Part shown: piece after piece, positions 2,416 through 49,545 of the stretch
How positions within the stretch are numbered: the stretch's first letter is position 1
Layout of the letters: each line of letters opens with the position of its first letter
NCBI GenBank assembly: GCA_015233405.1
Contig: JADFXT010000002.1
Span: forward strand, 4,451-68,450
Source of the DNA: Candidatus Omnitrophota bacterium
GTDB taxonomy: Bacteria; Omnitrophota; Gorgyraeia; Zapsychrales; Zapsychraceae
Direction of reading: 5' to 3'
Length of the DNA: 64,000 nt
Translations under genes and position numbers: made by a program
The notes under the pieces: model-generated
Database searches by the model: none
What the model was told of the DNA's origin: nothing
Seen by the model: the letters and a program-made list of their open reading frames with translations, nothing else

Positions 2416-2527
2416 ATCTTCAAGTCGTGTAAGCTTCCTTCCGTAGAATTAAAAAACAACCACAATATTCATAAAAAAGAAGAGACGAATTTTTCTTATT
2501 TCTTATTGAAATGAGCATAATTACATA

Positions 2528-2587
2528 TTATTATGAGCATATGCTAATAATAACGTTGATATTATTATGAGCATATGCTCATAATAA
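2528..2587 (+). promoter_or_regulatory. Two tandem 26-bp palindromes (candidate operator pair) upstream of the DUF134 gene
   Basis: TTATTATGAGCATATGCTCATAATAA at 2562-2587 is a perfect palindrome. 2528-2553 is the same with one C-to-A change, 34 bp start-to-start. A third ATGAGCATA half-site lies at 2511-2519. The pair ends 27 nt before the ATG at 2614. Confidence 0.6.
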
Positions 2588-2613
2588 AGTATTATTAAGT
2601 AAGGGGGCAAAAT

Positions 2614-3057
2614 ATGAAAAAAGGACGACAAAAAAAGGTCCGTTATGTTCAGGAAATGCCGAAAATTGCCCAGTTTAGCCCTAGGGGCAAGCCCGGAAGG
2701 CCTGATGAGGCTGAGCTTTTGATCGATCAGTTTGAGTCGATTAAGCTCCATGACTACCAGGGCTATGACCAAGATCAAGGCGCTCAAATCATGGGAATTT
2801 CCAGGCCAAGCTTTGGCAGAATTTTGCGCCAAGGCCACAAGATTGTTGCCGATGCCTTGGTTAATGCTAAAACCCTGCGTATTCGTATTGGAGATGTTCA
2901 GGTTGGTGTTCATCAGCATAGTTTGCCTCAAAGGCAGGATATTTCTTCTGGGCGTTCTGCTGAAGCGTCTATTCGTGAGAATATTTTGCAGTTTACTGCG
3001 CGTAGACGTAAATTAAAGGGAGCCAATTCTTCGGTGAATAAGACCGCAAATGTCTAA
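2614..3057 (+). CDS. DUF134 (UPF0251) family predicted DNA-binding protein
   Basis: 147 aa. Family pattern F.P.G....L..D.FE...L.D..G..Q..GA..MGISRP.F.RIL...H.K.VADALVN.K.L.I; SD-like AAGGGGG 7-14 nt upstream. Confidence 0.8.
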   Translation: MKKGRQKKVRYVQEMPKIAQFSPRGKPGRPDEAELLIDQFESIKLHDYQGYDQDQGAQIMGISRPSFGRILRQGHKIVADALVNAKTLRIRIGDVQVGVHQHSLPQRQDISSGRSAEASIRENILQFTARRRKLKGANSSVNKTANV

Positions 3058-3471
3058 AATCTGCTATAAACGGCCTTAGTCTTCCTAAACCACGAACTTC
3101 CTATAATACATCTTATGTTAACTTGTAGATATATGAATATTGTGGTGCAAGCCTTTGCGCTGCAACAAATTAACAAGTGTATTAATTTGGCCTGTGGAAA
3201 TCTCCGTTTAAACTTACTTGCTTTATAATTCAATAATAAAACAAATATCTTCTTTGCCATCCACTGGCAGATATATAATCATGGATAGATGGTTTAGAAT
3301 GCTTTATATTCTTTTATAAAATAAGATTGTTTTTATACAGATGATTGCGGAAGTTTCGAAATGGAAGGTCCTCCCTTCTAAAAATTGTGCCAGGTGAAGG
3401 GAGGTATTCGTGATAATTAGGGGATAGATATATAAAAGTCTTTAAAGAAGAGCGGAATTTAAAATCTTTAT

Positions 3472-3879
3472 TTAGAATTTAATCGTTTCTGGCTGCATAT
3501 CATGAGGAGACATAGCTTCCACATGATTAATGGAAACGACCATAAGTGTAAAATTAGGATCTTGAGGCCCGGCAAAATACATTTTCATGCTTGGGATGTT
3601 GTCCCAAAGAATGGTTTTCTTGTCCAAACTATCTACAATTTTAGCTTTTCCTGATAAGCGGCAGAAGTTCATTCTTCGGTCTACATAACAAAGTTCAACC
3701 ATGGGGTTTTCTTTGATTTGTTTTATAGTCCTAACCCCAGGCAATAAAGCCACTAAAAGTTCTCCATCAGTTGTTAAATAAGGGGACATGGGCCGTATTT
3801 TGGGACAGCCCCCTTCTATTGTTCCTAAAATGCAATATTGGGTGTCTTTGATGATATCGATAACGTCTTGCTTCGTCAT
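3472..3879 (-). CDS. Pyridoxamine 5'-phosphate oxidase-like FMN-binding protein
   Basis: 135 aa. PNPOx/general-stress-26-like layout (CILGTIEGGCPKIRPM ... IKENPMVELCY). Confidence 0.6.
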   Translation of the reverse strand: MTKQDVIDIIKDTQYCILGTIEGGCPKIRPMSPYLTTDGELLVALLPGVRTIKQIKENPMVELCYVDRRMNFCRLSGKAKIVDSLDKKTILWDNIPSMKMYFAGPQDPNFTLMVVSINHVEAMSPHDMQPETIKF

Positions 3880-3893
3880 TGCTCATTCCTCCC

Positions 3894-4700
3894 TTAATTA
3901 ATTTTTTTCATTTTAAATTTATCGGTTCCCATTAAATCTTTATTTTGAACAGCTATAATTTCCGCCATAATGGATACGGCTATTTCTTCAGGCGTTTGGG
4001 CGCCAATATCAATGCCTACGGGCATTTGTAATTTGTGTAAATCGCTTGTGCTGATTTTTAATTTTTTTAAATCCTTTAGGAATTTGAGTTGTTTAATCTG
4101 GCTTGAGATAACGCCAACATAGGCAGCTTGAGATTTTATAACTGCTTTAAGGCATTCGAAATCATGTTCGTGGCCATGGGTGACAATGATAATGTAGGTA
4201 TTTGGATTTACCGGGATTTTACAAAGGTTTTTTATATAATCACCGGAAAAAATGGCATCCGCGTGCCCAAAGCGTTTTTTGTTGGCGAAATCTTTGCGAT
4301 TATCTAAAACGGTAACTTTAAAATTAAGGATTTTAGCTATGGCCGATAAAGGCAGCGCAATATGGCCGCCACCGCAGATAACGATATGGCTTTCTGCCAA
4401 AATAGGCTCAATGAAGACCTTGATATATCCTCCGCAAACGGGTTGTCCTGGTTTGCCGAAATGTTCATAGGTCACGACTTTTGATCTTTTTGTTTTTATG
4501 GCCTTGAGGCATTCCTCCCTTGCTTTTTTTTCGCTGCTTCCCCCTCCGATAGTTCCTAATAAAGAGCCATCTTGAAGGACCACCATTTTAGCGCCTATTT
4601 TTCGTGGAGTGCCTTTTGAGGCTTCAATAATCGTGGCAAAACAGGCCGATTGGCCTGTTTTCACTGCTTGAACAGTTTTGGTAATAAGGTCAGGATCCAT
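3894..4700 (-). CDS. XdhC/CoxI family molybdenum-hydroxylase accessory (Moco insertion) protein
   Basis: 268 aa. XdhC N-domain plus Rossmann-like C-domain (IVICGGGHIALPLS...VTVLDNR...IIIVTHGHEHD). Confidence 0.85.
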   Translation of the reverse strand: MDPDLITKTVQAVKTGQSACFATIIEASKGTPRKIGAKMVVLQDGSLLGTIGGGSSEKKAREECLKAIKTKRSKVVTYEHFGKPGQPVCGGYIKVFIEPILAESHIVICGGGHIALPLSAIAKILNFKVTVLDNRKDFANKKRFGHADAIFSGDYIKNLCKIPVNPNTYIIIVTHGHEHDFECLKAVIKSQAAYVGVISSQIKQLKFLKDLKKLKISTSDLHKLQMPVGIDIGAQTPEEIAVSIMAEIIAVQNKDLMGTDKFKMKKIN

Positions 4701-4754
4701 AAATGCGTGAATTTATTTTGATAAAAAATGCTGTTGTTTTTATAGGCCGGAAAA

Positions 4755-5309
4755 CTATTTTACATAAGCCTTGATGATCTTTTGGTCTTGAAGCGGCTTG
4801 TCTCCGGGGCCTGTTGGGGCATTTTCGATTTTTTGAACAACGTCATATCCACTGATGACTTCTCCAAAAATCGTATGATGCATATTAAGCCACTGAGTTG
4901 CTGCGGTTGTGATGAAAAATTGGCTTCCATTGGTGCTAGGACCTGCATTGGCCATAGCGAGAAGACCTTTTCGGTCAAACTTGATCTGAGATGAGAATTC
5001 GTCGTCAAAAGTCCCTCCCCAAAGGCTTTCTCCTCCCCTGCCTGTTCCTGTCGGGTCTCCGCCTTGAATCATAAAGTTTTTAATGACGCGATGAAAGATG
5101 ATGCCGTTATAGTAACCTTTTTTGATAAGGCCGATCATGTTTTCACAAGCCTTGGGCGCGATATTAGGGAAAAGTTGGATTTCAATGTTTCCTTGATTTG
5201 TTTCAAAGACAATGATGGGTTGAGTTGTTGGCATGCGAGTTTCTCCTTTGGCTAATTGCGGGATTATTAAAAGAAATAAAGTAGTGAACAATAAATATTT
5301 TTTTAACAT
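4755..5309 (-). CDS. Secreted cyclophilin-type peptidyl-prolyl cis-trans isomerase
   Basis: 184 aa. N-terminal signal peptide; FHRVIKNFMIQGGDP and GLLAMANAGPSTNGSQFFIT cyclophilin motifs. Confidence 0.9.
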   Translation of the reverse strand: MLKKYLLFTTLFLLIIPQLAKGETRMPTTQPIIVFETNQGNIEIQLFPNIAPKACENMIGLIKKGYYNGIIFHRVIKNFMIQGGDPTGTGRGGESLWGGTFDDEFSSQIKFDRKGLLAMANAGPSTNGSQFFITTAATQWLNMHHTIFGEVISGYDVVQKIENAPTGPGDKPLQDQKIIKAYVK

Positions 5310-5342
5310 AATTCCCCTTTCTTTTAGAAATGCATGAAGAGA

Positions 5343-6443
5343 TTATAAGATTTTGCCTTCCTCATCGTTTTCGGCGATGTCTGGGTTTAATTTTAAGAAT
5401 CCGTCTTCAGGAAAAACGTATTCAATATCTTTTTTGGTCAATCCTGTTTTCTTTTTAGGAATGAGTGTTTTGGGGTTTTTCTGTGCGTCTTCTTCATGGA
5501 ATTGAATAATTTTATCTTGCGATGATTCTTCTTGAATATCAGGACGAGAATTATCGGCATTCGATTGTCCGATATCAATCGGCACAATGTCCGCTGATGG
5601 CAGAATGGTTCTCGGAGAATCTTGAGTAATATCAATAAGATTTAATTCAGAGAGTTTTATTTCTTCTGATGTTCTTTGAGGGTTGACCTCTGTAAGAATG
5701 ATGTCTTCGGATTTTTCGATTTTAGGCGGACGTTGGGTTTGCTGGTTAATAGGCGAAGCAAAAGAGTTTTGTTGATCTTGTTTTAGCCGTTTTAACAGTT
5801 CTTCCACTTCTTGGTCTTTCTCAAGCAGATTCTTTTCAAGATAGTTCAATCTTTGTTTGAGCTCAGCAATTTGTTCTTTGTATTCCTGGTTTTCTTTAAA
5901 GACAGCGGAAAGACCGTCTTGTGCTTTTTTTGTTTTTTGTTTTGCTGTTTCCAGTTCCTCTGTCAAAAGCGTTTTGACTTTATCAAAATCTTGCCGATTT
6001 CTTAGCTCACTGTTAAGGCCTTGTTCGAGAGTTTCTAAAGTTTTATTTTTTTCTTGGAGAAGCTGATCCATCTTTTTATATTTTTCTTCTGTGGTATTGT
6101 TTGGCAAAGAAAGGCTCTCATCTGCCGGCGCAGTTTTTAAAGAAGCCGTCCCTAGGTTATCTTTGATGGTGGCATCTTTTTCAGAAGAGAAATTCTCTTC
6201 TTGGCTGAGGGTGGATTTCTTTTTCCCAATGTTAAAATTAAACTGGCTTAAAAGAACGTCTATTTCCTGCGCAGATTCTTTCACGACGGGTTTTTTATCT
6301 AATAAGGCCGAAGGTTTTGAGGGTTCAGGAGTTTTTAAGAGGGTTGGAGGTTCTTTTCCTGGGGATTCTTCTTTTTTGAGATTCGCGAAGATAAAACCAA
6401 TGCCTCCAAGAGAAAATATGATAAGAATAAAAAATATGATCAC
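5343..6443 (-). CDS. N-terminally membrane-anchored, low-complexity coiled-coil protein of unknown function
   Basis: 366 aa. One N-terminal TM helix, then K/E/Q-rich heptad-like sequence. No catalytic motif recognised. Confidence 0.5.
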   Translation of the reverse strand: MIIFFILIIFSLGGIGFIFANLKKEESPGKEPPTLLKTPEPSKPSALLDKKPVVKESAQEIDVLLSQFNFNIGKKKSTLSQEENFSSEKDATIKDNLGTASLKTAPADESLSLPNNTTEEKYKKMDQLLQEKNKTLETLEQGLNSELRNRQDFDKVKTLLTEELETAKQKTKKAQDGLSAVFKENQEYKEQIAELKQRLNYLEKNLLEKDQEVEELLKRLKQDQQNSFASPINQQTQRPPKIEKSEDIILTEVNPQRTSEEIKLSELNLIDITQDSPRTILPSADIVPIDIGQSNADNSRPDIQEESSQDKIIQFHEEDAQKNPKTLIPKKKTGLTKKDIEYVFPEDGFLKLNPDIAENDEEGKIL

Positions 6444-6468
6444 AGGACCCTCTTTGGATTAAGTTTGA

Positions 6469-6498
6469 TTGACAAGGCCTTTAAGGCGACGATATAAT
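6469..6498 (+). promoter_or_regulatory. Near-consensus sigma70-type promoter placed for a leaderless mocA-like mRNA
   Basis: TTGACA (6469-6474), 18-nt spacer, TATAAT (6493-6498). ATG at 6506 is only 7 nt past the -10; no SD. Confidence 0.5.
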
Positions 6499-6505
6499 AA
6501 AATTT

Positions 6506-7108
6506 ATGATTTCCTGCATTCTTTTATCTGCCGGGTTAAGTAGCCGCTTTGGTTCCCCCAAGGCATTAGTTTCATTGGACCGTTCGTCTTCTACTGTCCT
6601 GATCGAAGATCTTCAACATCTTTTAATCCAGGTGCCTATTATTGATGAAATCATTGTTGTTCTAGGCGCAGAGCAAGAGAAAATAAAACCGTTCCTATTC
6701 AAACACAATCGAATTAAAGTTGTTTATAATAAAGATTATATTCTTGGTCAGACATCTTCTTTTAAAAAAGGATTGGAATATTTAAGCCCATCTTCCGACG
6801 GTATTATGTTGTTTCCAGTGGATTATCCGTTTATCCGGCAAGAAACCCTTCTTCAATTATGCGCATTATTTATGGAACAGAAGCCAGACATTCTTATCCC
6901 GACCTATCATGGCCAAAAAGGGCACCCGCCGATTTTTTCGATAAAATTAAAAGAAGAATTCCTTGGGTTGCCAAATGATGCTGGGATCAATATGTTAATC
7001 CATTCCTATTCCGGGCCAACAAGATTTGTGCCTGTTGAAGATGCTGGCATTATTAAAACATTTAATACCCCAGAAGAATTGGAAAAAATAAAAGGCCCTA
7101 ATTTTTAA
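6506..7108 (+). CDS. mocA: MobA-like nucleotidyltransferase, probable molybdenum cofactor cytidylyltransferase
   Basis: 200 aa. N-terminal LLSAGLSSRFG.PKAL motif of the NTP_transf_3/MobA/MocA family; lies beside XdhC and a molybdenum hydroxylase. Confidence 0.75.
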   Translation: MISCILLSAGLSSRFGSPKALVSLDRSSSTVLIEDLQHLLIQVPIIDEIIVVLGAEQEKIKPFLFKHNRIKVVYNKDYILGQTSSFKKGLEYLSPSSDGIMLFPVDYPFIRQETLLQLCALFMEQKPDILIPTYHGQKGHPPIFSIKLKEEFLGLPNDAGINMLIHSYSGPTRFVPVEDAGIIKTFNTPEELEKIKGPNF

Positions 7109-7475
7109 AGACAACAACAGCCGCTGTAAAGTTTGCGCGGATATACGCATTGCCGATCAATTTCTGGGCTGGCAATTTTTTCCATTCACCTGTCGCATCG
7201 GTTCGGATATCAGTAATGGCATCCCCGCCCAAGATCGCTGCCTCTCTTTTTATTTTATCTAGGACATCTTCAATGGTGTGTCGGCGTTCTGTGTTGACGG
7301 TGACATATCCGATGATTTCATGAGGTTCCGTCACGGTTTCTAAATAGACCACGTCACTTGCGGATTTCTTCGACGGATAATAATTGGTCGTGACATCCGC
7401 GGAATCCACATGGTAAAGGCTACAGGCGGAAGCCAGGAAAACAAGAGAAATTAAGGTGAGAAGTTTTTTTGTCAT
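7098..7475 (-). CDS. Small lipoprotein of unknown function
   Basis: 125 aa. Signal peptide with lipobox (LVFLASAC). Confidence 0.55.
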   Translation of the reverse strand: MTKKLLTLISLVFLASACSLYHVDSADVTTNYYPSKKSASDVVYLETVTEPHEIIGYVTVNTERRHTIEDVLDKIKREAAILGGDAITDIRTDATGEWKKLPAQKLIGNAYIRANFTAAVVVFKN

Positions 7476-9778
7476 TTTGTCATTCCTTTCAAAGCTTTTA
7501 TTATTTTATCCGGTGTAAACGGAAGTTCTTTAAGCCGTATCCCAACGGCATCTTCAATAGCATTGGCGATCGCTGCCGCCGTCGGAAGAAGAGCCGCCTC
7601 TCCCATTCCCTTGGCGCCGAACGGCCCGTTGGGGTCATTGGTTTCGATCAAAATACTTTCCATGGGCGGAATGCCAACCGACCGGGGAACTTTATAATGG
7701 CCAAAATTAGGATTGACCACGCGGCCATTTTTAAACTGTAAATTCTCATAGAGCGAATACCCAATGCCCATAATAAGCGAGCCTTCAATCTGCCCTTTGA
7801 CGGATTGAGGATTGATGGCTTTCCCGACGTCATGAGCGTCCCAAATTTTAAGGATTTTCACTTCCCCTGTTTCTTTATTGACCTCCACTTCCGCGATTTG
7901 GGCTTCGAACCCATAACTACCGGAGACGTTCCCTTCTCCTGTGCGAAAATCAATAGGAGTGGTCTTAGGGTTGAAACTACCCCGTCCGATAACTTGAGTC
8001 CCGTAATTAAATGAATAGCAAAGTTCGACGGCTTTTTCAAATGAAATTATCACAGAATTCGATGCCTTTTTAATGACCTGTTCGGCCTTAATATCGAGGT
8101 CTTCGCTTTGGCATTGATATTCTTGAGCAACAACATTTAAAATTTGCTGTTTGGCATCGCGTGCTGCGAGTAATGCGGAATTTCCCGAGATGAATGTGAC
8201 CCGGCTGGCGAAGCTTCCTGTATCAAATGGCGTAATTTCCGTGTCCGCGGCCGTGCATTTAATACGTTTAAAACTGATGCCTAATTCCTGGGCGGCAATT
8301 TGGGAAAGAGCGGTATTAGCGCCTTGCCCGGTGTCTGCAGCGCCAGTAAAGAGATATACAGAGCAATCCTCCTCTACTTTGATGATGGCTCCCCCAGACT
8401 CATGCGATTTGTACATCTTAGAGCCCATAACGTCGGCGGCAATGCCAATGCCGATGCCACGGCAGATATTTTGCTGCTTGCCGTGTTTCTGTTTCCAGCC
8501 GCTTGCCGCAGTCGCTTTCTCAATGCACTCCCGAAGGCCGTTAGAGGTAATGATCATTTTATTGGTCGTGACCATATTCGGTTCGGTAATATTTTTTAGG
8601 CGGAATTCCACCGGGTCCATGCCGATGCCTTGGGCTAAAAGGTCCATGTGCGATTCGATGGAAAATCCCGATTGTACGCCGCCAAATCCGCGAATCGCGC
8701 CGCTGACGGGATTATTGGTATAAATCCGATATGCGGTGATTTTTAAATTTGGAATTTTATAGACCATAAAAATCCGCATGGTGGCGGCCGCCAAAACAGT
8801 CGGGCCATAACTGCAATAAGCTCCTCCGTCGGCAATGACCTCGCCCGTGATCGCCACAATGGTGCCGTCTTTTTTTATCCCGCTTTTAAGTTTATAGATC
8901 ATGCTATGTTTCCGTCGAGAAAATGAAAATTCTTCTTCGCGGTTATAGCAGATTTTAACCGGTACGCCACCCGCTTTCTTCGATAGTAAGCACGCGGAAA
9001 AATCCATCGGGAGCATTTCGAGTTTTCCGCCGAAGCCGCCGCCGGATGCGAGCTTAATGACGCGAATATCGTTTAAATTCATCTTAAGACATTTGGCCAA
9101 GGCTTCCCGGACTTTAAACGGGGCTTGATGGGAGATCCATAAAGTAATTTTATTAGAAAAAGTCTCCCATTGCCCGACGCAGGTATGCGTTTCCATGCAG
9201 GCGTGCGCCGCGGATTGGCAATAGAAAACATCTTCACGGACGTAATCGGATTCCTGAAGGCCGCGCTCGGCATTGCCGAAGTTAACCGGGAGCATGACGC
9301 CGATATTATTACGGACGTGGTTATGGACTTGCGGTGCCCCGGGTTTCATGGCTTCTTCAGCGTCGAAGACTGCGGGTAAGATTTCATATTGGACATCAAT
9401 GAGCTTTATGGCTTCGTCTGCGGTTTTCTCATCGATAGCCGCAACGGCGCCGATCTCATCGCCGATATAACGGACCTTTTGGGACTCAAGCGCTTCCTGA
9501 TCGACCGTATGAGGAAAGAAATATTCGTTGGACCCGAATTTTATTTTAGAGGTGTCTTCCGCCGTGATAATGGCTTTAACCCCGGGCAATTGTTCGGCTT
9601 TGGACGTATCAATTTTAAGGATCTTGGCGTGCGGATGCGGCGAGCGCAGCATTTTACCGACGAGTATGCCGGGCAGGTTCATGTCGAAGGTATACTTCGT
9701 CTGGCCGGTCACGAGCCCTTTGCCGTCAATGCGCGGGATATTTTTTCCTACAGGATTTAAAAAGTCTTTGTTATCCAT
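7472..9778 (-). CDS. Molybdenum hydroxylase (xanthine dehydrogenase / aldehyde oxidoreductase family) molybdopterin-binding large subunit
   Basis: Family motifs GKNIPRIDGKGLVTGQTKY, GGGFGGK, IRGFGGVQ, GAKGMGEAAL. I place the start at ATG 9778 (MDNKDF...), overlapping the stop of the 2Fe-2S gene (ATGGATAA). The track ORF extends to 9889. Confidence 0.9.
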   Translation of the reverse strand: MDNKDFLNPVGKNIPRIDGKGLVTGQTKYTFDMNLPGILVGKMLRSPHPHAKILKIDTSKAEQLPGVKAIITAEDTSKIKFGSNEYFFPHTVDQEALESQKVRYIGDEIGAVAAIDEKTADEAIKLIDVQYEILPAVFDAEEAMKPGAPQVHNHVRNNIGVMLPVNFGNAERGLQESDYVREDVFYCQSAAHACMETHTCVGQWETFSNKITLWISHQAPFKVREALAKCLKMNLNDIRVIKLASGGGFGGKLEMLPMDFSACLLSKKAGGVPVKICYNREEEFSFSRRKHSMIYKLKSGIKKDGTIVAITGEVIADGGAYCSYGPTVLAAATMRIFMVYKIPNLKITAYRIYTNNPVSGAIRGFGGVQSGFSIESHMDLLAQGIGMDPVEFRLKNITEPNMVTTNKMIITSNGLRECIEKATAASGWKQKHGKQQNICRGIGIGIAADVMGSKMYKSHESGGAIIKVEEDCSVYLFTGAADTGQGANTALSQIAAQELGISFKRIKCTAADTEITPFDTGSFASRVTFISGNSALLAARDAKQQILNVVAQEYQCQSEDLDIKAEQVIKKASNSVIISFEKAVELCYSFNYGTQVIGRGSFNPKTTPIDFRTGEGNVSGSYGFEAQIAEVEVNKETGEVKILKIWDAHDVGKAINPQSVKGQIEGSLIMGIGYSLYENLQFKNGRVVNPNFGHYKVPRSVGIPPMESILIETNDPNGPFGAKGMGEAALLPTAAAIANAIEDAVGIRLKELPFTPDKIIKALKGMTK

Positions 9779-10238
9779 TTTTAAGTTTTTGTCCTGCTGA
9801 TTTAACCGCTTCGACGATTTCAACATATCCGGCGCAGCGGCAGAGATTTCCATCCAAGGCCTTTTTGATTTCTTCTTCGGTTGGTGCAAGATTTTTATTT
9901 AATAAAGATTGCGCTGCTAGGATCATGCCTGGCGTACAGAATCCGCACTGCACCGCCCCCTTTTCTAAGAATGCTTCCTGAAGAGGATGAAGATTGTCTC
10001 CCTGGGATAGTCCTTCAATGGTGGTGATATTTTGACTGTCTAGCGTAGCGGCTAAGGTGATACAAGATAACACTGATTTCCCGTCGACAAGAACCGTGCA
10101 GGCTCCGCATTCGGCTTCCTGGCACGCGCTTTTGGTCCCTGTAAAACCCAAATGGTCGCGCAAGACTTCCAGCAAGGTTTCGTGGCCCTTAAGGTTAAGT
10201 TCATATTTTTTATTGTTTACGATCAGTGTCGTTGTCAT
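9771..10238 (-). CDS. Molybdenum hydroxylase (2Fe-2S)-binding small subunit
   Basis: 155 aa. CQEAECGACTV and CGFCTPG...CRCAGY cysteine motifs for two [2Fe-2S] clusters. Confidence 0.9.
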   Translation of the reverse strand: MTTTLIVNNKKYELNLKGHETLLEVLRDHLGFTGTKSACQEAECGACTVLVDGKSVLSCITLAATLDSQNITTIEGLSQGDNLHPLQEAFLEKGAVQCGFCTPGMILAAQSLLNKNLAPTEEEIKKALDGNLCRCAGYVEIVEAVKSAGQKLKNG

Positions 10239-11083
10239 TTGGCTTTCCCAGTAATTTCTTCAAGTGCCTGTTTGATAGAAACTTCAAACATGTGTCTTTT
10301 GTAATCATCGTCTTTTGTTTCATATATTGGACTTTTTAATTGTCCTATAGCTTCAGTTGCCAGCGTCGGTGAAAACGGCTTTTGGTTTAGGAAATTTTCT
10401 AAGAGGTTGTCTCTTTGGCAAAATACTGTACCGTTATTAACGGTAACTTGTGTGTCCGCAAATGTTTTATTTTTTAAACAAGTTTTGATGCAAACGGAAA
10501 GCATCGGAATATCGATGGCTGCGGTGCGTGTGGCTCGTCGGTAGCTGACAACTAGATTCTCTTCCTTGGGAATAGTAATTTTAGTCAGGATCTTATTTGT
10601 CTTGGCTGCATTTTTAAAGAAGTTTTCTGCCTCGACAATTTCTTCCTTGCCGTTTGATGTAAAATGTAGGCGAGCATTGAGCGCCACCATAATCGTCGGC
10701 AATTCTGTCCAGGTATAACGGCAGGTCAAATTTCCGCCGACCGTGGCCATATGACGAATCGGTGTTGTGGCAATCTGAGAGCTAACTGTTTTTAGAATTC
10801 CAAATTCTTTGGCGATGACGGAGGAATTTATTATATCGTCTAAAGTGACCATAGCACCGAGCGAAAGAATTCCATTTTCTAAAGAAATTGCGTGAAGTTC
10901 AGGGATTTTTTTGAGGCTGATGATGTTGTCCGGCGTCTTGAGACCTTTGTTCTTTAAGTTCTTTAAGCTGTTAACCAGAAACGTCCCTCCTGCCAGGATC
11001 TTGATGTTATCCAATTTGGCATAAAGCTCGTCGGCTTCAGCGATTGTTTGAGGTAGATGTAATGTCAATGGATTGAGTTGCAT
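10235..11083 (-). CDS. Molybdenum hydroxylase FAD-binding medium subunit (CoxM/XdhB-like)
   Basis: 282 aa. ILAGGTFL and ATVGGNL FAD-binding-5 motifs; 4-nt overlap with the downstream subunit. Confidence 0.85.
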   Translation of the reverse strand: MQLNPLTLHLPQTIAEADELYAKLDNIKILAGGTFLVNSLKNLKNKGLKTPDNIISLKKIPELHAISLENGILSLGAMVTLDDIINSSVIAKEFGILKTVSSQIATTPIRHMATVGGNLTCRYTWTELPTIMVALNARLHFTSNGKEEIVEAENFFKNAAKTNKILTKITIPKEENLVVSYRRATRTAAIDIPMLSVCIKTCLKNKTFADTQVTVNNGTVFCQRDNLLENFLNQKPFSPTLATEAIGQLKSPIYETKDDDYKRHMFEVSIKQALEEITGKAK

Positions 11084-11091
11084 AATAAATT

Positions 11092-12924
11092 TTATTTTCC
11101 GTCGAAGTCTTCCAGGGCCACTTCCACAACAGCGATATCCCAGCCGTGGGAAAATATCTCTTTTTTGACCTCTTCTTTTGTTTTTTGAGCAAAATCTTTT
11201 TTATGAGCCTCAATAAAAGTTCTCAATATTTTAACATTATACTCCTGATGCTTGTTCAATTGCCAGCGTAAAGGCACCATCTCTTCTTTTTTGTTAAGCA
11301 GATACGCGATAACCGCTAACCCCATCGGCAGCAAAAGTACGCCTAACGAAGAATAAAAATCTACCGGTTGAGAAGGGCTTAGGAGAAATCCCGAGACGTG
11401 CCAGAAGGCATCAAAAAGATAGTGCGCCACAATAACGGGAATGATCCCAATCGAAAGATAGACGACGGATAAAAATATGCCTAAACAAGAAACTTCCACG
11501 CCACGAAACCACATAGGGAAAACCGGATAGCTGCTGTGAGCGAATCCCCAAATGAGCGACGAGAATAATACGGCGAGAAGAGTGCTTTTAAAGACTTTCT
11601 TCATCCAGTTGACGGCAAATAACCGGTAAAGAATTTCTTCCGAGAAACCGGCTTTCCAGCCGATCGTAAGTGCAGTGATAAACGGTAGATAGGTCGTCGA
11701 GAGCTGGCCCATCCAGGTATTCTCGACCCAAACGCCCCAATAGGCTTGTCCGATCTTTACAAGCAGCGCTTGAAGCCCAAGCATGATGATGCTAATGAAA
11801 TATCCTAGAATAATGAGCTCAGCAAAGGACCGCGTCCAAAAACTTGAGAGCCGGTAAAATAAGAAAGACCCTTTCTTTTGCTCGGGCGAAACTTCAAAGT
11901 GCATAAGCTCTCCGGATAAGCCGGGAATAATGCAAATCAATGAAGCAAGGATCATCGGGGCGATGTTATTGACGCCATAGCGCATCAGGTAGGAATTTAA
12001 TGGGCCTGTGGTCCCATAACCGTAAAGCACGTTTTGAAAAAAGTTGAAGATCGATAAGATGGACAAAAAGAAAAATATCCCGGCCATGGCCAGATAGAAA
12101 TTTTTGGTTTTGTTCATGGCCAGATGATTCCGTCGGGAAAAAAGAACAAAGGCGGCCATTGCATAGAGAATAGCATAAAGGATCCGGACAAAAGATGTAA
12201 GGTTCTCCCCTACTTCTTGTTTTTGTCCCAAGAAACGGTTGAACTGGTCAGGGACAGCAAAAATGTTTTTAGAAAAAGACAGGATTTCATTTCCCGAGAT
12301 GCTTGCCCCCGTCAGCAATTTTCCGGTTCCGGAATCTTTTTTATCGCTCCAGGGAATATGGACGCTCTTTTTTTCCCAGGTAAAAGAATAATCAATGCGG
12401 TTATCTTTGGCGATTTCCGTATCATCTTTGAGTTTGTAAAGGTCAAAATTAATGTGAAATTGGTCTTTTAAGAAAGTCTGGACGCGCTGTAAAGATTCTT
12501 CTTTGGAAATCTTTGGGCGATAAGCGCTGTCTTCAATGACATGGCGGAAAGAAGTGGCTTCTCCCGTCGAAGAACTGACGGTAATCCGGTATTCTTCCTT
12601 TTCCTGTTCTTTAAAAAAACGGACAGCCCAGAAGAATGTCTCAAAATCGTTATCGTGGATAAATTTTTTAAATCCTTTAAATCCGATCGTTTTTTGAAGA
12701 TAGCGGTCCGTCGGGGAGTCTTGAGTAAAGACGATAGCTGTTTTATACTGCGACGGATTTGTTCCGGTTTTAGAAAGATAATCCTTGGCGATCGTGAGGG
12801 CTTTTGCCCTGCTGGTGGAGAAATTCCCAAAGCTGAGCTGAGGATAGCTATAGGCATACCAAAACCAGAGGCTTAAAAGGCAAAGGATAAAAAAGGTGAA
12901 CCTTGTGGCACGTTTAATGTTCAT
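11092..12924 (-). CDS. Polytopic membrane protein with C-terminal CPBP (CAAX/Abi-type) intramembrane glutamic protease domain
   Basis: 610 aa. Large N-terminal extracytoplasmic domain. CPBP motifs EEILYR, FAHSSY and HYLFDAFW in the TM region. Confidence 0.75.
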   Translation of the reverse strand: MNIKRATRFTFFILCLLSLWFWYAYSYPQLSFGNFSTSRAKALTIAKDYLSKTGTNPSQYKTAIVFTQDSPTDRYLQKTIGFKGFKKFIHDNDFETFFWAVRFFKEQEKEEYRITVSSSTGEATSFRHVIEDSAYRPKISKEESLQRVQTFLKDQFHINFDLYKLKDDTEIAKDNRIDYSFTWEKKSVHIPWSDKKDSGTGKLLTGASISGNEILSFSKNIFAVPDQFNRFLGQKQEVGENLTSFVRILYAILYAMAAFVLFSRRNHLAMNKTKNFYLAMAGIFFFLSILSIFNFFQNVLYGYGTTGPLNSYLMRYGVNNIAPMILASLICIIPGLSGELMHFEVSPEQKKGSFLFYRLSSFWTRSFAELIILGYFISIIMLGLQALLVKIGQAYWGVWVENTWMGQLSTTYLPFITALTIGWKAGFSEEILYRLFAVNWMKKVFKSTLLAVLFSSLIWGFAHSSYPVFPMWFRGVEVSCLGIFLSVVYLSIGIIPVIVAHYLFDAFWHVSGFLLSPSQPVDFYSSLGVLLLPMGLAVIAYLLNKKEEMVPLRWQLNKHQEYNVKILRTFIEAHKKDFAQKTKEEVKKEIFSHGWDIAVVEVALEDFDGK

Positions 12925-12933
12925 GGCGTAAGT

Positions 12934-13656
12934 CTATAGTAAATCCAGGACTTCTTTGGGAAGTTTGTTGAGTTCTTGAATCCCTAACACTTTGACCGAC
13001 CAGCGCAGGATGTTTAATTTTTGTTTAAGCGGCTCATCGGGATCTTTAACATCAGCGAGGCGTTTACGTGACAGAAAAAATATGTTTCTTAGCGCATTAA
13101 AAATGATCCGGGCTTCCCGCGGACGGTTATTGCCGGATTCGATCAGCTCATTGATGCTGTCATAAGCAAATGCGTTGACGGTCTTATTATAATGATTCAG
13201 TTTTTGAATCAGAGCCGGGACCATGGTCTTGAAATATTTGTAACGGTCGATTTTGCACAACGTGTGCATAATTTCCACCTGGACAAACGGAGAAGTGTTT
13301 AGATTAAGTCTTCTTAAAAGGATCCGTTCCGTCACTTCTTTCTCATCGGCGACAACCTCTTTGCTATATTTTTCTTTAAAGACGCCTACAGCGGCGGCAA
13401 TTTGATAGGCGGACAACGTGTCATCCTGAATCATTGCTAAAAGGACATCTTGGGAAAGGTTTGTGTATTGTTGCGCATATCCTTCTAAAAGTGTTTTGTC
13501 GTCGAAGATGGCGTAAGGATTAAAGGGTTGTGTGGCAGGAGCTGTTGAGCTTTCAGATGTCCTGGCCAGTCCTTGTGAGTCCTGGGCATACAATGAACCA
13601 ATAGAAACAAATAATACGCTGATTATGGTTGTGATGTGAAAAAAGATTTTCTTCAT
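12934..13656 (-). CDS. Secreted alpha-helical protein of unknown function
   Basis: 240 aa with N-terminal signal peptide. No motif recognised. Confidence 0.5.
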   Translation of the reverse strand: MKKIFFHITTIISVLFVSIGSLYAQDSQGLARTSESSTAPATQPFNPYAIFDDKTLLEGYAQQYTNLSQDVLLAMIQDDTLSAYQIAAAVGVFKEKYSKEVVADEKEVTERILLRRLNLNTSPFVQVEIMHTLCKIDRYKYFKTMVPALIQKLNHYNKTVNAFAYDSINELIESGNNRPREARIIFNALRNIFFLSRKRLADVKDPDEPLKQKLNILRWSVKVLGIQELNKLPKEVLDLL

Positions 13657-14519
13657 TGTGTCAGGATCTCCATCGACACATCAACCGTTTTATAGGTGTG
13701 CGTGAGTGCTCCCGTGGAGATGCGGTCCACTCCTGTCTTAGCGATAGAGCGGACATTTTTTAAGGTCACTCCGCCGGAAGCTTCCAAAAGAGGATGCTTT
13801 CCTTTAAACGCCTTCACGATTTTGACAGCGTCCCTCATTTGCCGGTTATTCATATTATCAAGTAAAACAATATCCGGTTTGGCCTTGAGCACTCGCCTTA
13901 ATTGGGCGAGCGTGTCCACTTCGATAATGACGGATTTTGTACTTATTTTTCGAAATTTTTTTAAAATCCCGACCAGCTCATCTAAATGTTCTGAGATTTC
14001 ACGGTGGTTGTCTTTGATCAAGACCATCTCATTTAAATTGTGACGGTGATTAACGCCGCCGCCGCAGCGGACCGCGTATTTTTCAAGTTTCCGTAAACAG
14101 GGTGTTGTTTTTCGTGTGTCCAAGATTTTCGCTTTGGTGTGACGGACTTTTTCCGCGAACCGATTGGTATTGGTCGCAATGCCCGAAAGATATCCCAGGA
14201 AATTTAAAGCGGTCCTCTCTCCCGTCAAAATGGTGCGTGTTTTGCCTTTTAAGAAAGCGATCTTTGTCCCTTTTTTGACTTTATCACCGTCGGAAAATGA
14301 CGTGTTGAATTTTAGGTTTTTATCAATCCTGTGAAAAACTTGTTTAGCGATTTTAAGGCCGCAAAGAACAGCATCTTCCTTGACGATCATATAGGCCTCG
14401 GAGATTTTTTCTTTAGGAACAAGAAGGTTCGTCGTGATGTCCTGGTCAAAAGTGTCCTCTAATAACGCCTGAAGGACGATTTGTCGGGTTTCTTTAGAGT
14501 TCATTGCGAGTTCTCTCAT
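13653..14519 (-). CDS. nadC: Nicotinate-nucleotide pyrophosphorylase (quinolinate phosphoribosyltransferase)
   Basis: 288 aa. TGERTALNFL, DTRKTTP and RCGGGVNHRHNL motifs; ATGA overlap with the valS stop. Confidence 0.9.
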   Translation of the reverse strand: MRELAMNSKETRQIVLQALLEDTFDQDITTNLLVPKEKISEAYMIVKEDAVLCGLKIAKQVFHRIDKNLKFNTSFSDGDKVKKGTKIAFLKGKTRTILTGERTALNFLGYLSGIATNTNRFAEKVRHTKAKILDTRKTTPCLRKLEKYAVRCGGGVNHRHNLNEMVLIKDNHREISEHLDELVGILKKFRKISTKSVIIEVDTLAQLRRVLKAKPDIVLLDNMNNRQMRDAVKIVKAFKGKHPLLEASGGVTLKNVRSIAKTGVDRISTGALTHTYKTVDVSMEILTQ

Positions 14520-17143
14520 ATTAAGCCTTTGATAGCTTGTTGGAGTTTTTCGATTTTTTTCTGAAGGTCTTGAAGCCGTTCTTTATCTTTGGCGACGACC
14601 TCTGCTGGTGCTTTTTCGACAAAAGCTGCATTGGCTAGTCGGTCAGCCAAGCCTTGCTCGGCTTTTTTATATTCATCCAGTTGTTTTAAAATGCGCCCCT
14701 TCTCTTTCTCGACGTCAATCACACCTTCAAGGCTAATGGCATTTTCCGAATCTTCAAAGACATTGCGGATGACGTTTTGTGTTTGAGACAAGCTAGGCAA
14801 AATGACAGGGTCTTTGATCTTGGCTAAACTTTTCAAAAGGCCGATATTGTTTTCTAATATGTTCCGTACCGCGGCTGACGACGAGGCAAATTGGCAAGAC
14901 AATTCCTCGTTGGGTTTGATTTCCCACTCGGCCCGCGAGTTTCGGATAGACACGATATGTTCAATAAGAATCCGCATATTTTTTTCTGCTTGCGGGTCGA
15001 TCAGATTGTCTTCAACGGTTGGCCAAGGTTGTATGCAGAGTTCGCTTTGGCCGCTTTTTTTGATGTTCTCCCAGATCTCTTCGGTGACAAACGGCATAAA
15101 AGGGTGGATTATTTTTAAAGATTCCGCGAGGATTTTAAAGACGATATTCTGTGTCGTCGGATTCGCCCAATCGTTTTTGATGATCTCCAGATACCAATCG
15201 CAAAAATTATTCCAGAAGAATTCATAGATCAGCGATTCGGCTTCGGAATACCGGTAATGTTCGATGGCATCTGATACGTCTTTGATCGTCGTATAAAGCC
15301 GGGAAATGATCCATTTCGACGGCAAATCAAGGTCCGGCATGTTTTTTATGGCCGAAAGTTTAAACGAAGGGTCGATCGTTTGAGCGTTCATTAAAATCAA
15401 TCTCGACGCGTTCCAGATCTTATTGGCGAAATTCCGGCCGATCTCGAATTTTTCCTTCGAGATAAAAAGATCCTGTCCGGAGTTGATGATCAAACTAAAG
15501 CGTAAGGCGTCCGCGCCGTATTCCTCGATGATCTCCAAGGGATCAATAGCGTTTCCTAAGGACTTCGACATTTTTCGACCCTTAGCGTCGCGCACCGTGC
15601 CGTGGATATACACGTCGGAAAATGGGATATCTCCTCGAAATTCAAACCCGGCCATGATCATGCGCGCCACCCAGAAAAAGATGATCTCGCTTGCGGTAAA
15701 AAGTGATGACGTCGGATAAAAATATTTAAGGTCTGCATTCTCTTGTGGCCAGCCTAAGGTCGCAAACGGCCATAGCCACGATGAGAACCAGGTATCCAAG
15801 ACGTCCTCATCCTGTTTAAGATTTTTGGAATGGCACTTCGGGCACGCTGCCGGCGTATCTTTGACAACAATTTCCATCTGGCAATCTTGGCAATACCAAA
15901 CAGGAATTCTATGCCCCCACCAGATCTGCCGTGAAATACACCAATCGCGAATCCCTTCCATCCAATTCAAATAGACCTTCGACCAGCGTTCGGGATAAAA
16001 TTTGATGCGACCATCCTTGACCGCCTCAATTCCCGGCTGGGCGAGCGGCGTCATCCGTACAAACCATTGTTTGGATAAATACGGTTCGACCACGGTATCG
16101 CAGCGATAGCAATGCCCGACGGCGTGCAAATGATCGTCGGTCTTCACCAAAAGTCCTTGGGCTTCCAGATCTTCCAGGATTTTTTTGCGTGCCACAAAAC
16201 GGTCGAGGCCGTTATAAACTCCACCCTGCTCATTAATTTTTCCGTCGGGATGCATAATGTTAATGAACTCTAAGTTGTGGCGTTTGCCCATCTGATAGTC
16301 ATTCGGGTCGTGGGCCGGGGTCACTTTGACCGCGCCAGAGCCGAATTCTCTATCGACAAGTTCGTCGGTAATAATAGGAATTTCACGGTTTACCAATGGT
16401 AAAATCAAAATTTTTCCAATAAGATTCTGATAGCGTTCATCTTTCGGATTGACGGCGACCGCGGTATCGCCCAGCATGGTTTCCGGACGAGTTGTGGCAA
16501 CAACGATGAATTGGTCAGGGTTCTCTTTAAGCGGATAACGGATATGATACAAATGCCCTTTGGTATCTTTGTGCTCGGCTTCCTCGTCGGAAAGAGCGGT
16601 GTGGCAGCGCGGGCACCAGTTGATAATATATGTGCCACGGTAAATGAGATCTTTTTCATAAAGACGGACAAAAACTTCTTTGACCGCGTTACTGTATGCG
16701 TCGTCCATGGTAAAGCGCGTGCGTTTCCAGTCGCAGGACGCGCCGATTTTCTTTAGCTGATTGATAATGGTGTCGCCATACTGCTTCTTCCACGCCCAAA
16801 GTTTTTCTAAGAATGCCTCGCGGCCAAGATCGTGGCGTTTCTTCCCTTCTTTCGCGAGCGCTTTCTCGACGACGTTTTGCGTGGCAATGCCGGCATGATC
16901 GGTCCCGGGCATCCAGAGCGCTTCAAAACCTTTCATGCGTTTATAGCGGATAATAATATCTTGTAATGTATTATTGAGCGCGTGGCCCATATGCAGAATG
17001 CCGGTCACATTTGGCGGCGGAATGACAATGGTATACGGCGGCTTGCCAGTATCGGCCTTGGCATGGAAAAGGTTCTTGTCTTCCCAATCTTTGCTCCACT
17101 TGGCATCGACAGTTTTAAAATCGAATCGTTTAGAGAGTTCCAT
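14516..17143 (-). CDS. valS: Valine--tRNA ligase
   Basis: Class I HIGH (HMGHALN) and KMSKS motifs, CP1 editing domain, C-terminal coiled coil. Start taken at ATG 17143 (MELSKRF...). The track uses an upstream TTG at 17155. Confidence 0.95.
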   Translation of the reverse strand: MELSKRFDFKTVDAKWSKDWEDKNLFHAKADTGKPPYTIVIPPPNVTGILHMGHALNNTLQDIIIRYKRMKGFEALWMPGTDHAGIATQNVVEKALAKEGKKRHDLGREAFLEKLWAWKKQYGDTIINQLKKIGASCDWKRTRFTMDDAYSNAVKEVFVRLYEKDLIYRGTYIINWCPRCHTALSDEEAEHKDTKGHLYHIRYPLKENPDQFIVVATTRPETMLGDTAVAVNPKDERYQNLIGKILILPLVNREIPIITDELVDREFGSGAVKVTPAHDPNDYQMGKRHNLEFINIMHPDGKINEQGGVYNGLDRFVARKKILEDLEAQGLLVKTDDHLHAVGHCYRCDTVVEPYLSKQWFVRMTPLAQPGIEAVKDGRIKFYPERWSKVYLNWMEGIRDWCISRQIWWGHRIPVWYCQDCQMEIVVKDTPAACPKCHSKNLKQDEDVLDTWFSSWLWPFATLGWPQENADLKYFYPTSSLFTASEIIFFWVARMIMAGFEFRGDIPFSDVYIHGTVRDAKGRKMSKSLGNAIDPLEIIEEYGADALRFSLIINSGQDLFISKEKFEIGRNFANKIWNASRLILMNAQTIDPSFKLSAIKNMPDLDLPSKWIISRLYTTIKDVSDAIEHYRYSEAESLIYEFFWNNFCDWYLEIIKNDWANPTTQNIVFKILAESLKIIHPFMPFVTEEIWENIKKSGQSELCIQPWPTVEDNLIDPQAEKNMRILIEHIVSIRNSRAEWEIKPNEELSCQFASSSAAVRNILENNIGLLKSLAKIKDPVILPSLSQTQNVIRNVFEDSENAISLEGVIDVEKEKGRILKQLDEYKKAEQGLADRLANAAFVEKAPAEVVAKDKERLQDLQKKIEKLQQAIKGLI

Positions 17144-17323
17144 AGAATATTCCAATAATATTATTAATTTAATAGATATATTTAGATTATTATAAATTTA
17201 CACTTGTGCCAATATACCATAGGACTTGCGTGCTGAGAAGAGAAAATTCAGGTTAAAACATGAAATATTTACTGTCGTTTAGCTTGACAACCGTATATAT
17301 CTATAAGAATATGAAGCCTATAT

Positions 17324-48719: not shown

Positions 48720-48793
48720 TGGAGCGGGCGATGAGAATCGAACTCACGTATCCAGCTTGGAAGGCTAGTGTTCTACCACTGAACTACGCCCGC
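48720..48793 (-). tRNA. tRNA-Gly (UCC)
   Basis: Hand-folded: GCGGGCG acceptor, GTTC/GAAC D-stem, anticodon loop CUUCCAA, TTCGATT T-loop, CCA encoded. 74 nt. Confidence 0.95.
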
Positions 48794-48904
48794 AAATAAC
48801 CACAGAATCTTTTCAATGGTTTTGCCTGATGCTCAACCATTCCCTCGGACATTTCGTCCTCGGTCAAACTTGCCAGTCCCGCCGGTGTTAGGCGGGGCGC
48901 CCGC
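48794..48904 (-). repeat. tRNA-leader module copy A (heptamer GCGGGCG + GC-rich structured core + leader)
   Basis: Homologous to 49546-49659. Hairpins at 48878-48896 and 48815-48841. The distal heptamer at 48898-48904 is identical to the tRNA-Gly 5' end. Confidence 0.6.
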
Positions 48905-48908
48905 AAAA

Positions 48909-48945
48909 AAGTTATAAGCAATAGGTGATAAGTTATAAGAAAAAA
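48909..48945 (-). repeat. Left inverted repeat of the four-helix-bundle cassette
   Basis: AAGTTATAAGCAATAGGTGATAAGTTATAAGAAAAA pairs with 49334-49362: 25/29 matching positions including G:U, plus a 7-nt bulge. Confidence 0.7.
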
Positions 48946-49296
48946 TTAAGACCGTAATGATCGAATCAAACCGGTGAGTAATTTGCCGATTTCTTCTGAC
49001 TGAAATTTTAACTCCAAATATTTTTCTTCACGATAATAATGCAGGTCTTTTGCGAGAATAAGATAATATTTGGTTTCTTCCAAAGAGCCTTGTGCTATAT
49101 CGAGAAAGCGCGCAAAATCTTTTCTTGTTTTTTTATGCCCTTCGGCAATATTTACACAAATGGAAAACGTTGAACGTCTGATTTGGCTAATAATCCCGAC
49201 GGATTCTTCTTTCGGGAAATCTTTTGTTATTCTGTAGATTTCTATAACAAAGATGTGTGCTTTTTGCCAAACAATAAGATTCTCAAAACTGTTCAT
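48946..49296 (-). CDS. Four-helix-bundle protein (23S rRNA intervening-sequence protein / Avd-like family)
   Basis: 116 aa. Family hallmarks: LIVWQKAH...IYRITKDFPKEE...ISQIRRS..SI..NIAEG, QGSL.E and a helical C-terminus. Strong SD GGAGGGG. Confidence 0.85.
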   Translation of the reverse strand: MNSFENLIVWQKAHIFVIEIYRITKDFPKEESVGIISQIRRSTFSICVNIAEGHKKTRKDFARFLDIAQGSLEETKYYLILAKDLHYYREEKYLELKFQSEEIGKLLTGLIRSLRS

Positions 49297-49299
49297 AAA

Positions 49300-49334
49300 A
49301 TCACCCCTCCTTTTTATGATTTTAGGGGGATGAT
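49300..49334 (-). promoter_or_regulatory. Hairpin pairing the SD of the four-helix-bundle gene with an upstream CCCCC tract
   Basis: mRNA ATCA-U-CCCC ... GGGG-UGAU; 8 Watson-Crick pairs around a 13-nt AU loop. Confidence 0.35.
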
Positions 49335-49362
49335 TTTTCTTACTACTTATTACTTATAACTT
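49334..49362 (-). repeat. Right inverted repeat of the four-helix-bundle cassette
   Basis: Reverse complement AAGTTATAAGTAATAAGTAGTAAGAAAAA matches 48909-48945. Confidence 0.7.
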
Positions 49363-49372
49363 AGAACTAAAA

Positions 49373-49455
49373 TGGGCAGTGCAGGATTCGAACCTACGTA
49401 GCGCAAGCGCAGCAGATTTACAGTCTGCCCTCGTTGACCACTTGAGTAACTGCCC
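49373..49455 (-). tRNA. tRNA-Tyr (GUA)
   Basis: Hand-folded class II tRNA: GGGCAGT acceptor, 3-bp D-stem, anticodon loop CUGUAAA, long variable arm, TTCGAAT T-loop. 83 nt, no CCA. Confidence 0.95.
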
Positions 49456-49472
49456 AATGACAACTATATTTA

Positions 49473-49545
<73 letters not shown>

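Follow-up and report, generated by a model that had tools for sequence, protein, structure and literature searches.

What is the function of two nearly identical 26-bp palindromes that stand in tandem directly in front of a gene for an uncharacterised DNA-binding protein? The question is raised by a stretch of 64,000 nucleotides from a Candidatus Omnitrophota genome (contig JADFXT010000002.1, positions 4,451 to 68,450; hereafter the window, meaning the whole stretch that was analysed), in which such an array precedes a gene of the DUF134/UPF0251 family. A profile search finds 3786 clusters of this family at 50% identity; to our knowledge, it has no solved structure, no known target and no described operator. 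An earlier note on the window suggested that the array is the autoregulatory operator of the gene and that no operator had been defined for the family. The latter statement agrees with the accessible literature, in which nothing relevant was found on DUF134 operators or function, only incidental mentions. As for the former, the palindromes are very probably the site through which the downstream DUF134 protein is predicted to repress its own promoter, because the same box precedes DUF134 genes in three phyla.

The arrangement of the array was verified in the sequence. The proximal dyad, O2 (TTATTATGAGCATATGCTCATAATAA, 2562-2587), is a 26-bp palindrome without any mismatch around the axis 2574|2575, and the distal dyad, O1 (2528-2553, axis 2540|2541), is a copy with one substitution (A for C at 2546), as the earlier note had described; neither has a strand, and their centre-to-centre distance is 34 bp. 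The last base of the array is 2587, and the ATG of the DUF134 gene, an open reading frame of 147 codons on the plus strand (2614-3057), follows at 2614, preceded by a Shine-Dalgarno-like AAGGGGG (2601-2607, plus strand). With up to three mismatches allowed, the 16-bp core of the palindrome has 3 matches in the 64-kb window against 0.20 expected, and none of 100 shuffled sequences reached 3. The third match, at 27682, has three mismatches, lies within a coding region and falls below the weight-matrix threshold given below, and it was rejected as a site.

Loci with relatives of this gene, 99 in number, were collected by looking up the encoding contigs, by one scan of genome contigs and by one scan of metagenome contigs with a 41-sequence alignment. 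The upstream comparison was made with 72 non-redundant regions, whose proteins are 49-79% identical. Two GAGCAnnTGCTC dyads were found in 53 of these regions, spaced by 34 bp in 51 and by 33 bp in 2, which answers the question whether DUF134 genes of relatives carry similar dyads at a near-fixed spacing; at least one dyad is present in 64 of the 72, exactly one clear dyad in 11, and the regions without any are either truncated contigs or belong to a divergent subclade (Gln-type, see below). Between the proximal dyad and the ATG lie 24 to 88 bp, so that the position of the dyads is fixed with respect to one another but not with respect to the start codon. When the 51 regions are aligned on the distal axis, information content rises sharply at position -13, drops at +12, and forms a second block from +21 to +46, while the 8-bp linker and the DNA beyond the dyads stay at background level, apart from a promoter of the form TTGaCa-17-TATAAT. 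Therefore, the conserved unit is exactly the 26-bp palindrome, with the consensus TTATAATGAGCAT|ATGCTCATTATAA and the inner box TGAGCA-N2-TGCTCA; the site is kept upstream of orthologous regulators while the flanking DNA diverges. A weak third signal, G-T-T, is seen at columns +54 to +56 (about 2595-2597 in the window), 34 bp past the start of the proximal dyad, and looks like a decayed third repeat.

The box is also exclusive to these promoters. A 26-bp weight matrix, applied with a threshold of at least 14 bits to both strands of 497 kb of DNA (the 64 kb of this genome and 4 kb on either side of the relatives), gave 145 distinct matches, all of them no more than 200 bp upstream of a DUF134 start, with a median score of 31 bits for true sites. 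No match was found outside DUF134 promoters in the 497 kb, that is, in the window and all collected loci. Scattering over many loci, which according to the earlier note would indicate a generic repeat, was thus not seen, and since every match lies at a DUF134 promoter, that reading is removed.

The dyads overlap a conserved promoter of the sigma-70 type, as predicted from consensus. In the window, a consensus scan gives TTGAAA-17-TATTAT on the plus strand, with the putative -35 hexamer at 2506-2511 and the putative -10 hexamer (consensus TATAAT) at 2529-2534. The 51 aligned relatives have a TTGaCa-like block at -35 to -30, equally far from the distal dyad, followed by 17 nt and by TATAAT at -12 to -7, where the consensus bases occur 44 (T), 46 (A), 47 (T), 32 (A), 45 (A) and 51 (T) times. 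The -10 hexamer doubles as the outer left arm of the distal dyad, and this places the predicted transcription start on the distal axis, at about 2541; O1 would thus cover both the -10 hexamer and the start, and O2 would be centred at about +34 in the leader. Thus, an overlap with the core promoter of the regulator itself, as in autoregulatory operators, is found for consensus promoters. The half-site ATGAGCATA, which the earlier note counted as part of the array, is indeed present at 2511-2519 (plus strand), but it sits in the spacer between the -35 and -10 hexamers and is not conserved, columns -30 to -22 from the distal axis being almost without information in the relatives. A second promoter-like match on the plus strand, TTGATA-18-CATAAT (2556-2585), surrounds the proximal dyad; it is probably lineage-specific or a chance match, because its -35 hexamer is not conserved in relatives (columns +15 to +20 are not TTGACA-like).

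The product of the open reading frame 2614-3057 matches Pfam DUF134 (PF02001) over residues 2-96 with 72.8 bits (cut-off 27, E 3.5e-20), which places it in the family, and it also has a weak match to sigma-70 region 4; the identical protein has been deposited from a metagenome-assembled genome of Candidatus Omnitrophica. The alignment and an AlphaFold2 model (pLDDT 80) give an N-terminal basic arm, a sigma-70-region-4-like helix-turn-helix, a beta hairpin and a C-terminal helix (residues 107-139). Residue 64, an arginine, opens the third helix of the helix-turn-helix, that is, the recognition helix. The segment SPRGKPGRP of the basic arm is invariant in the clade, AT-hook-like and of low model confidence. 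In a fold search of the model against the PDB, no structure matched at E <= 0.001, and the alignments are limited to the helix-turn-helix of about 45 residues, which pairs with region 4 of ECF sigma factors, the DNA-binding domain of DeoR, KorA and ArdK.

The identity of the binding protein is suggested by joint changes in the recognition helix and the box. Proteins with Arg64 have GAGCA..TGCTC dyads at 64 of 64 loci. In one subclade the recognition helix reads M[HN]ISQQTFSR instead of the MGISRPSFGR found elsewhere, with Gln in place of Arg64, and all eight independent loci of this Gln-type subclade have a single dyad with the core TGAGTA..TACTCA, GGGTA..TACCC or, in one locus, GAATA..TATTC. 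A replacement of Arg by Gln, paired with G to A on the contacted strand, is a classical recognition swap. Thus, residues predicted to contact DNA and operator bases change together, in few independent events. Because the number of evolutionary events is small (one or two), this covariation is regarded as strong qualitative support for DUF134 as the binder, suggestive rather than statistical. Protein length also varies with the number of dyads: among proteins of at least 125 aa, which have the C-terminal helix, 47 of 53 are preceded by two dyads and 6 by one, whereas among those shorter than 125 aa, which lack it, 12 of 18 are preceded by one and 6 by two. Since length tracks dyad number in this way, it is suggested that the C-terminal helix mediates the contact between dimers that fixes the 34-bp spacing. 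Two further observations concern the Gln-type subclade. Its members L084-L089, L091 and L093 have a conserved direct repeat, GGCGTTAAAAGTAGGTAAA-N-TAGGTAAA, just before the ATG, in the place of the proximal dyad. In L088, L091 and L093, the region upstream of DUF134 contains a gene for a ParA/MinD-like ATPase that also has a carbohydrate-binding-type domain, and after it several open reading frames of 60-130 aa without Pfam matches.

The box recurs with distant DUF134 genes of two other phyla. Four loci of Thermodesulfobacteriota, with proteins 35-43% identical to that of the window, share the box CTTGACAAATTATGAGCATATGCTTATAATTA in otherwise unrelated upstream DNA, where it is placed between the -35 and -10 hexamers. 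These DUF134 genes are followed by a Nitro_FeMo-Co gene, and no dif site is present at the four loci. At one of the four, L095, a second DUF134 box (5609-5632) with its own TTGACG/TATAGT promoter and the same layout precedes an open reading frame of 40 aa that is NifX-like. The outgroup from Bacteroidales, within the same range of identity, consists of the two genes matched in a search of a plasmid collection; in both, DUF134 is encoded as a fusion with a zinc ribbon and with a Nitro_FeMo-Co domain, and the boxes, TTGAGCATTTGCTCAT and ATGAACATTTGTTCAT, stand about 45 nt before the ATG. Recurrence in such distant relatives makes the box a property of the family and not of this genome, and the linkage of DUF134 to Nitro_FeMo-Co and NifX-like genes in other phyla hints at the usual regulon of the family. 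The suggestion of an autoregulatory operator is therefore supported by what was observed in silico, namely the conserved sequence and spacing of the dyads, their overlap with the promoter, the exclusivity of the motif, the covariation of protein and DNA, and the recurrence of the box in two phyla besides Omnitrophota.

From these patterns we infer the stoichiometry of the dimers and their cooperativity, that regulation is negative, where transcription starts and which contacts are made; these points may be put together as follows. One DUF134 dimer would bind each palindrome (TTATAATGAGCAT|ATGCTCATTATAA), its two sigma-70-region-4-like helix-turn-helix units reading the inner TGAGCA half-sites, with Arg64, at the beginning of the recognition helix, recognising G in the C:G pair. 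Contacts to the AT-rich outer TTAT/ATAA are probably made by the flexible basic N-terminal segment (KGRxKK...SPRGKPGRP). The distal dimer would occlude the -10 hexamer and the predicted start site, while the proximal dimer would be located at about +34 in the leader. As the protein accumulates, two dimers at the fixed distance of 34 bp, binding cooperatively and probably through their C-terminal helices, would close the promoter. We infer cooperative binding of two dimers, as the earlier note had suggested, because the 34-bp spacing is invariant and the presence of two dyads accompanies the C-terminal helical extension; the near-invariance of the spacing argues for a geometry-dependent direct contact over loose looping.

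Several points weigh against this interpretation. A distance of 34 bp corresponds to 3.2 helical turns, which would place the two dimers on different faces of the DNA; to cooperate, they would therefore need a flexible or extended contact. The Arg/Gln covariation amounts to essentially one or two evolutionary events, and mutual information between protein columns and operator positions within the Arg-type clade gave only phylogenetic-looking signals, such as that between D52N and the central base of O2. The recognition helices encoded by the two Bacteroidales genes are nearly identical, yet their boxes differ at one core base (GAGCA versus GAACA). The start site and the promoter are consensus predictions, and binding and repression by DUF134 are likewise predicted. 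Finally, the protein may have further targets outside the scanned DNA.

The DUF134 gene occupies a particular place on the chromosome. A block of about 30 nt, located 9-280 nt after the DUF134 stop codon in the relatives, exceeds the protein itself in conservation, and its first 28 bp are a dif site. In the window, this site (ACTTCCTATAA-TACATC-TTATGTTAACT, or ACTTCCTATAATACATCTTATGTTAACT) is found at 3096-3123 on the plus strand, 39 nt after the stop codon, and is identical to the dif site of B. subtilis at 24 of 28 positions; the consensus of 69 loci agrees with B. subtilis dif at 25 and with E. coli dif at 20 of 28. It has the architecture of confirmed dif sites, two 11-bp arms around a 6-bp centre, and varies mainly in the central 6 bp, positions 14, 16 and 17 being variable. 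DUF134 is the gene that immediately precedes dif in about 75 of 86 loci and always points at it, and the linkage is kept in the Gln-type subclade. No terminator was found between DUF134 and dif, and sometimes only 9-16 nt separate the stop codon from dif; with no terminator and often no room for one, transcription of DUF134 must run into dif.

The dif site is unique in the window and in every locus examined, and it lies where gene strand and base composition switch. In the window, all four genes before dif are on the plus strand and 46 of the 52 after it on the minus strand, with the switch point at 3058-3471; over 69 loci, 188 open reading frames on the plus and 14 on the minus strand lie to the left of dif, and 136 on the minus and 21 on the plus strand to the right. 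For the same 69 loci taken together, GC skew goes from about +0.12 to about 0 at dif and AT skew changes sign (paired p = 5e-6); GC skew in the 64-kb window alone showed no sign change. The switch of gene orientation and base skew at dif marks the replication terminus. The genes on both sides vary by lineage and belong to ordinary families: a GAF histidine kinase with an NtrC-type regulator, hemL with hemB, and CBS and HAMP proteins are found to the left, and a PNPOx-like protein, XdhC and cyclophilin to the right. An element integrated at dif (IMEX) was considered and rejected, as no second dif-like site of at least 10 bits was found in any locus and the flanking synteny is chromosomal.

A second conserved block follows dif in the window (3191-3229, plus strand) and comprises CCTGTGGAAA (3191-3200), AAACTTAC (3210-3217) and TTATAAT (3223-3229). 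In 26 non-redundant loci, CCTGTGGAWAA, AAACTTAC and TTATAAT occur at fixed distances past dif; of the 26 loci with CCTGTGG nearby, 24 have it 93-95 nt from the dif start, and the other two at 90 and 92 nt. When reversed, CCTGTGGAWAA resembles a DnaA box. These three motifs may be accessory protein-binding sites or a promoter. The block was also considered as a small RNA or an origin, given its TATAAT and the DnaA-box-like TGTGGATAA, but it has no Rfam match and no RNAalifold structure on either strand. In the window as a whole, the only Rfam matches at gathering score are three tRNAs, and positions 2950-3550 gave only chance-level matches at E > 1.

Some further features of the neighbourhood were noted. 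The minus-strand genes at 3472-17155, to the right of dif, encode a PNPOx-like protein, XdhC, a MobA-like transferase, a molybdopterin hydroxylase and a FAD-binding subunit, and form a molybdenum-cofactor-related cluster; the PNPOx and XdhC genes are kept across dif from DUF134 in more than 20 loci, without a DUF134 box in front of them. Some contigs of the closest relatives (L004, 1459-2543; L005, 1876-2151) have an insertion of an IS3-type transposase pair (HTH_Tnp_1 and rve) about 370 nt after DUF134, immediately beyond the region of dif. The three tRNA genes lie at 48723-49545 on the minus strand.

Could the palindromes have another function, or be bound by another protein? That they work as RNA, with the proximal hairpin in the 5' leader controlling mRNA stability, translation or termination, would fit the stable fold of the predicted leader (2541-2616, -18.4 kcal/mol, z-score -3.4), in which O2 forms a hairpin of about 12 pairs; such a fold is to be expected of any palindrome. 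The pattern of substitutions points the other way. Of the departures from the consensus in 1326 arm-pair cells (102 dyads), 245 abolish complementarity, 48 are compensatory double changes and 45 give G-T pairs, so that pairing is broken five times more often than it is compensated, and it is therefore the bases that are conserved and not the pairing. Furthermore, O1, which is under equal constraints, is cut by the predicted start site, the ribosome-binding site is unpaired in the predicted leader fold, and the box of Thermodesulfobacteriota, between the -35 and -10 hexamers, is not transcribed. O2 was flagged in a scan for terminators, and its conserved 3' flank is AATAA, with no T run; a role as terminator or attenuator was ruled out, since the T run is not conserved and the pairing is not maintained. 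A function at the RNA level is accordingly highly improbable. The region is AT-rich, and short palindromes are common in such DNA, which might point to a chance feature or a generic repeat (REP- or MITE-like); this possibility is regarded as refuted by the excess of matches in the window (3 observed versus 0.2 expected) and by the restriction of the motif to DUF134 promoters, with fixed spacing, in more than 70 lineages. Another candidate is a different and more global regulator, for example a repressor of the LexA type, with the DUF134 gene as one member of its regulon. The Gram-positive SOS (LexA) box is GAAC-N4-GTTC, and the GAGC-N4-GCTC core resembles it, above all in the Bacteroidales variant GAACATTTGTTC; moreover, locus L093 has lexA and an error-prone polymerase gene directly across dif. 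However, the box tracks DUF134 genes in differing gene contexts in three phyla, covaries with the DUF134 recognition helix and precedes no other gene in the 497 kb, the lexA-polymerase cluster of L093 included, which makes a regulator of this kind very unlikely.

The location of the gene raises a further alternative, in which the dyads and DUF134 form mainly a terminus-specific nucleoprotein element and repression of the promoter is a by-product. Such an element may block replication forks, anchor the terminus, or modulate either Xer recombination or the transcription that passes through dif. This would account for the position of DUF134 as last gene before dif in most loci despite the differing neighbour families on both sides, for the coincidence of dif with the switch in gene strand and base skew, and for the obligatory entry of DUF134 transcription into dif; the absence of a second box locus in the 497 kb also means that this is possibly the only site of the protein. 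There is a precedent, as the ter site adjoining tus represses tus, and rtp is autoregulated (PMC10331603). On the other hand, the sites are symmetric and hence without built-in polarity, and in place of several opposed polar Ter sites the 64-kb window and the 4 kb on either side in 80 relatives showed a single symmetric tandem site, to one side of dif. The fold is unlike that of Tus, RTP or MatP, the search for such likeness having given only a sigma-region-4-type helix-turn-helix and nothing at E <= 0.001. Because both fold and site polarity fail, DUF134 does not belong to the Tus or RTP families. In distant relatives, the box recurs at ordinary promoters of DUF134 genes that are remote from any dif and stand beside Nitro_FeMo-Co genes, and the linkage to dif persists in the short-protein and Gln-type subclades, where a single dyad is present. 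Thus, a primary role at the terminus is quite unlikely. The broader proposal that DUF134, the tandem dyads and dif of Omnitrophota constitute one terminus module, with a chromosomal role beyond self-repression, is likewise rather unlikely. If it were true, the bound dyads, about 550 bp away from dif, might halt the last replication fork or set its timing, label the terminus for the division machinery, or control the transcription that otherwise enters dif and, through it, Xer recombination; the complex would represent a third unrelated kind of terminus-bound protein, in an uncultivated phylum, with self-repression as a by-product as at tus and rtp.

An operator for self-repression by DUF134 therefore remains the preferred interpretation, and it makes several predictions. 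The natural specificity swap (Arg64 with GAGCA versus Gln with GAGTA) and the pairing of the C-terminal helix with the 34-bp spacing can be tested without culturing. The box can be used for the prediction of regulons, which in other phyla seem to include genes for proteins with a Nitro_FeMo-Co domain. The strict linkage of DUF134 to dif is a trait of chromosome organisation in Omnitrophota and, at the same time, a simple marker of the replication terminus in these genomes.

The predicted system is most readily compared with lambda CI/Cro at OR and with KorA and ArdK, which have in common with it a small helix-turn-helix protein (its dimeric state being a prediction for DUF134), palindromic operators over the -10 hexamer and start, and a fixed centre-to-centre spacing of adjacent operators, from which contacts between dimers are implied; KorA and ArdK are also among the weak structural matches of the DUF134 model. 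DUF134 differs from all of these in showing no detectable sequence kinship, in combining a helix-turn-helix of the sigma-70 region 4 type with a basic N-terminal arm and a beta hairpin, and in the unusual length of its putative operator (26 bp) and the 34-bp spacing. The best structural matches of its helix-turn-helix are region 4 of sigma-70 and ECF sigma factors, and the half-site TTGAGCA resembles the -35 hexamer TTGACA; however, sigma region 4 binds one -35 hexamer as a monomer within RNA polymerase, whereas DUF134 is free-standing and its sites have two-fold symmetry. NrdR boxes, which occur in ribonucleotide-reductase promoters as pairs of 16-bp palindromes spaced by about 31-32 bp, resemble the array in their tandem arrangement, rigid spacing of about three turns, overlap with the promoter and conservation across phyla. 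The consensus, the protein (a zinc ribbon and an ATP cone in NrdR) and the targets are different, the DUF134 spacing being 34 bp and the target its own gene.

With Tus-ter and RTP, the latter of which binds as two adjacent dimers, DUF134 has in common that the gene for a small DNA-binding protein is located at the terminus beside its own promoter-overlapping site, binding and repression being predictions in the case of DUF134. The ter sites of Tus and RTP are asymmetric or polar and several of them surround the terminus, while the DUF134 sites are symmetric and were found at one locus, and the folds are unrelated. In XerS-difSL and XerH-difH, the gene is genetically linked to its dif site (PMC2731167), and the likeness lies in a gene being kept beside dif across a whole lineage; XerS and XerH are recombinases, whereas DUF134 is a helix-turn-helix protein of 100-166 aa whose putative site is about 550 bp from dif and not dif itself. 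The kind of mechanism is already known, that of an ordinary autorepressed helix-turn-helix repressor with tandem operators; the new elements are, for a family that had not been characterised, a first DNA box, a residue predicted to contact DNA and a predicted element of cooperativity, together with the conserved linkage to dif.

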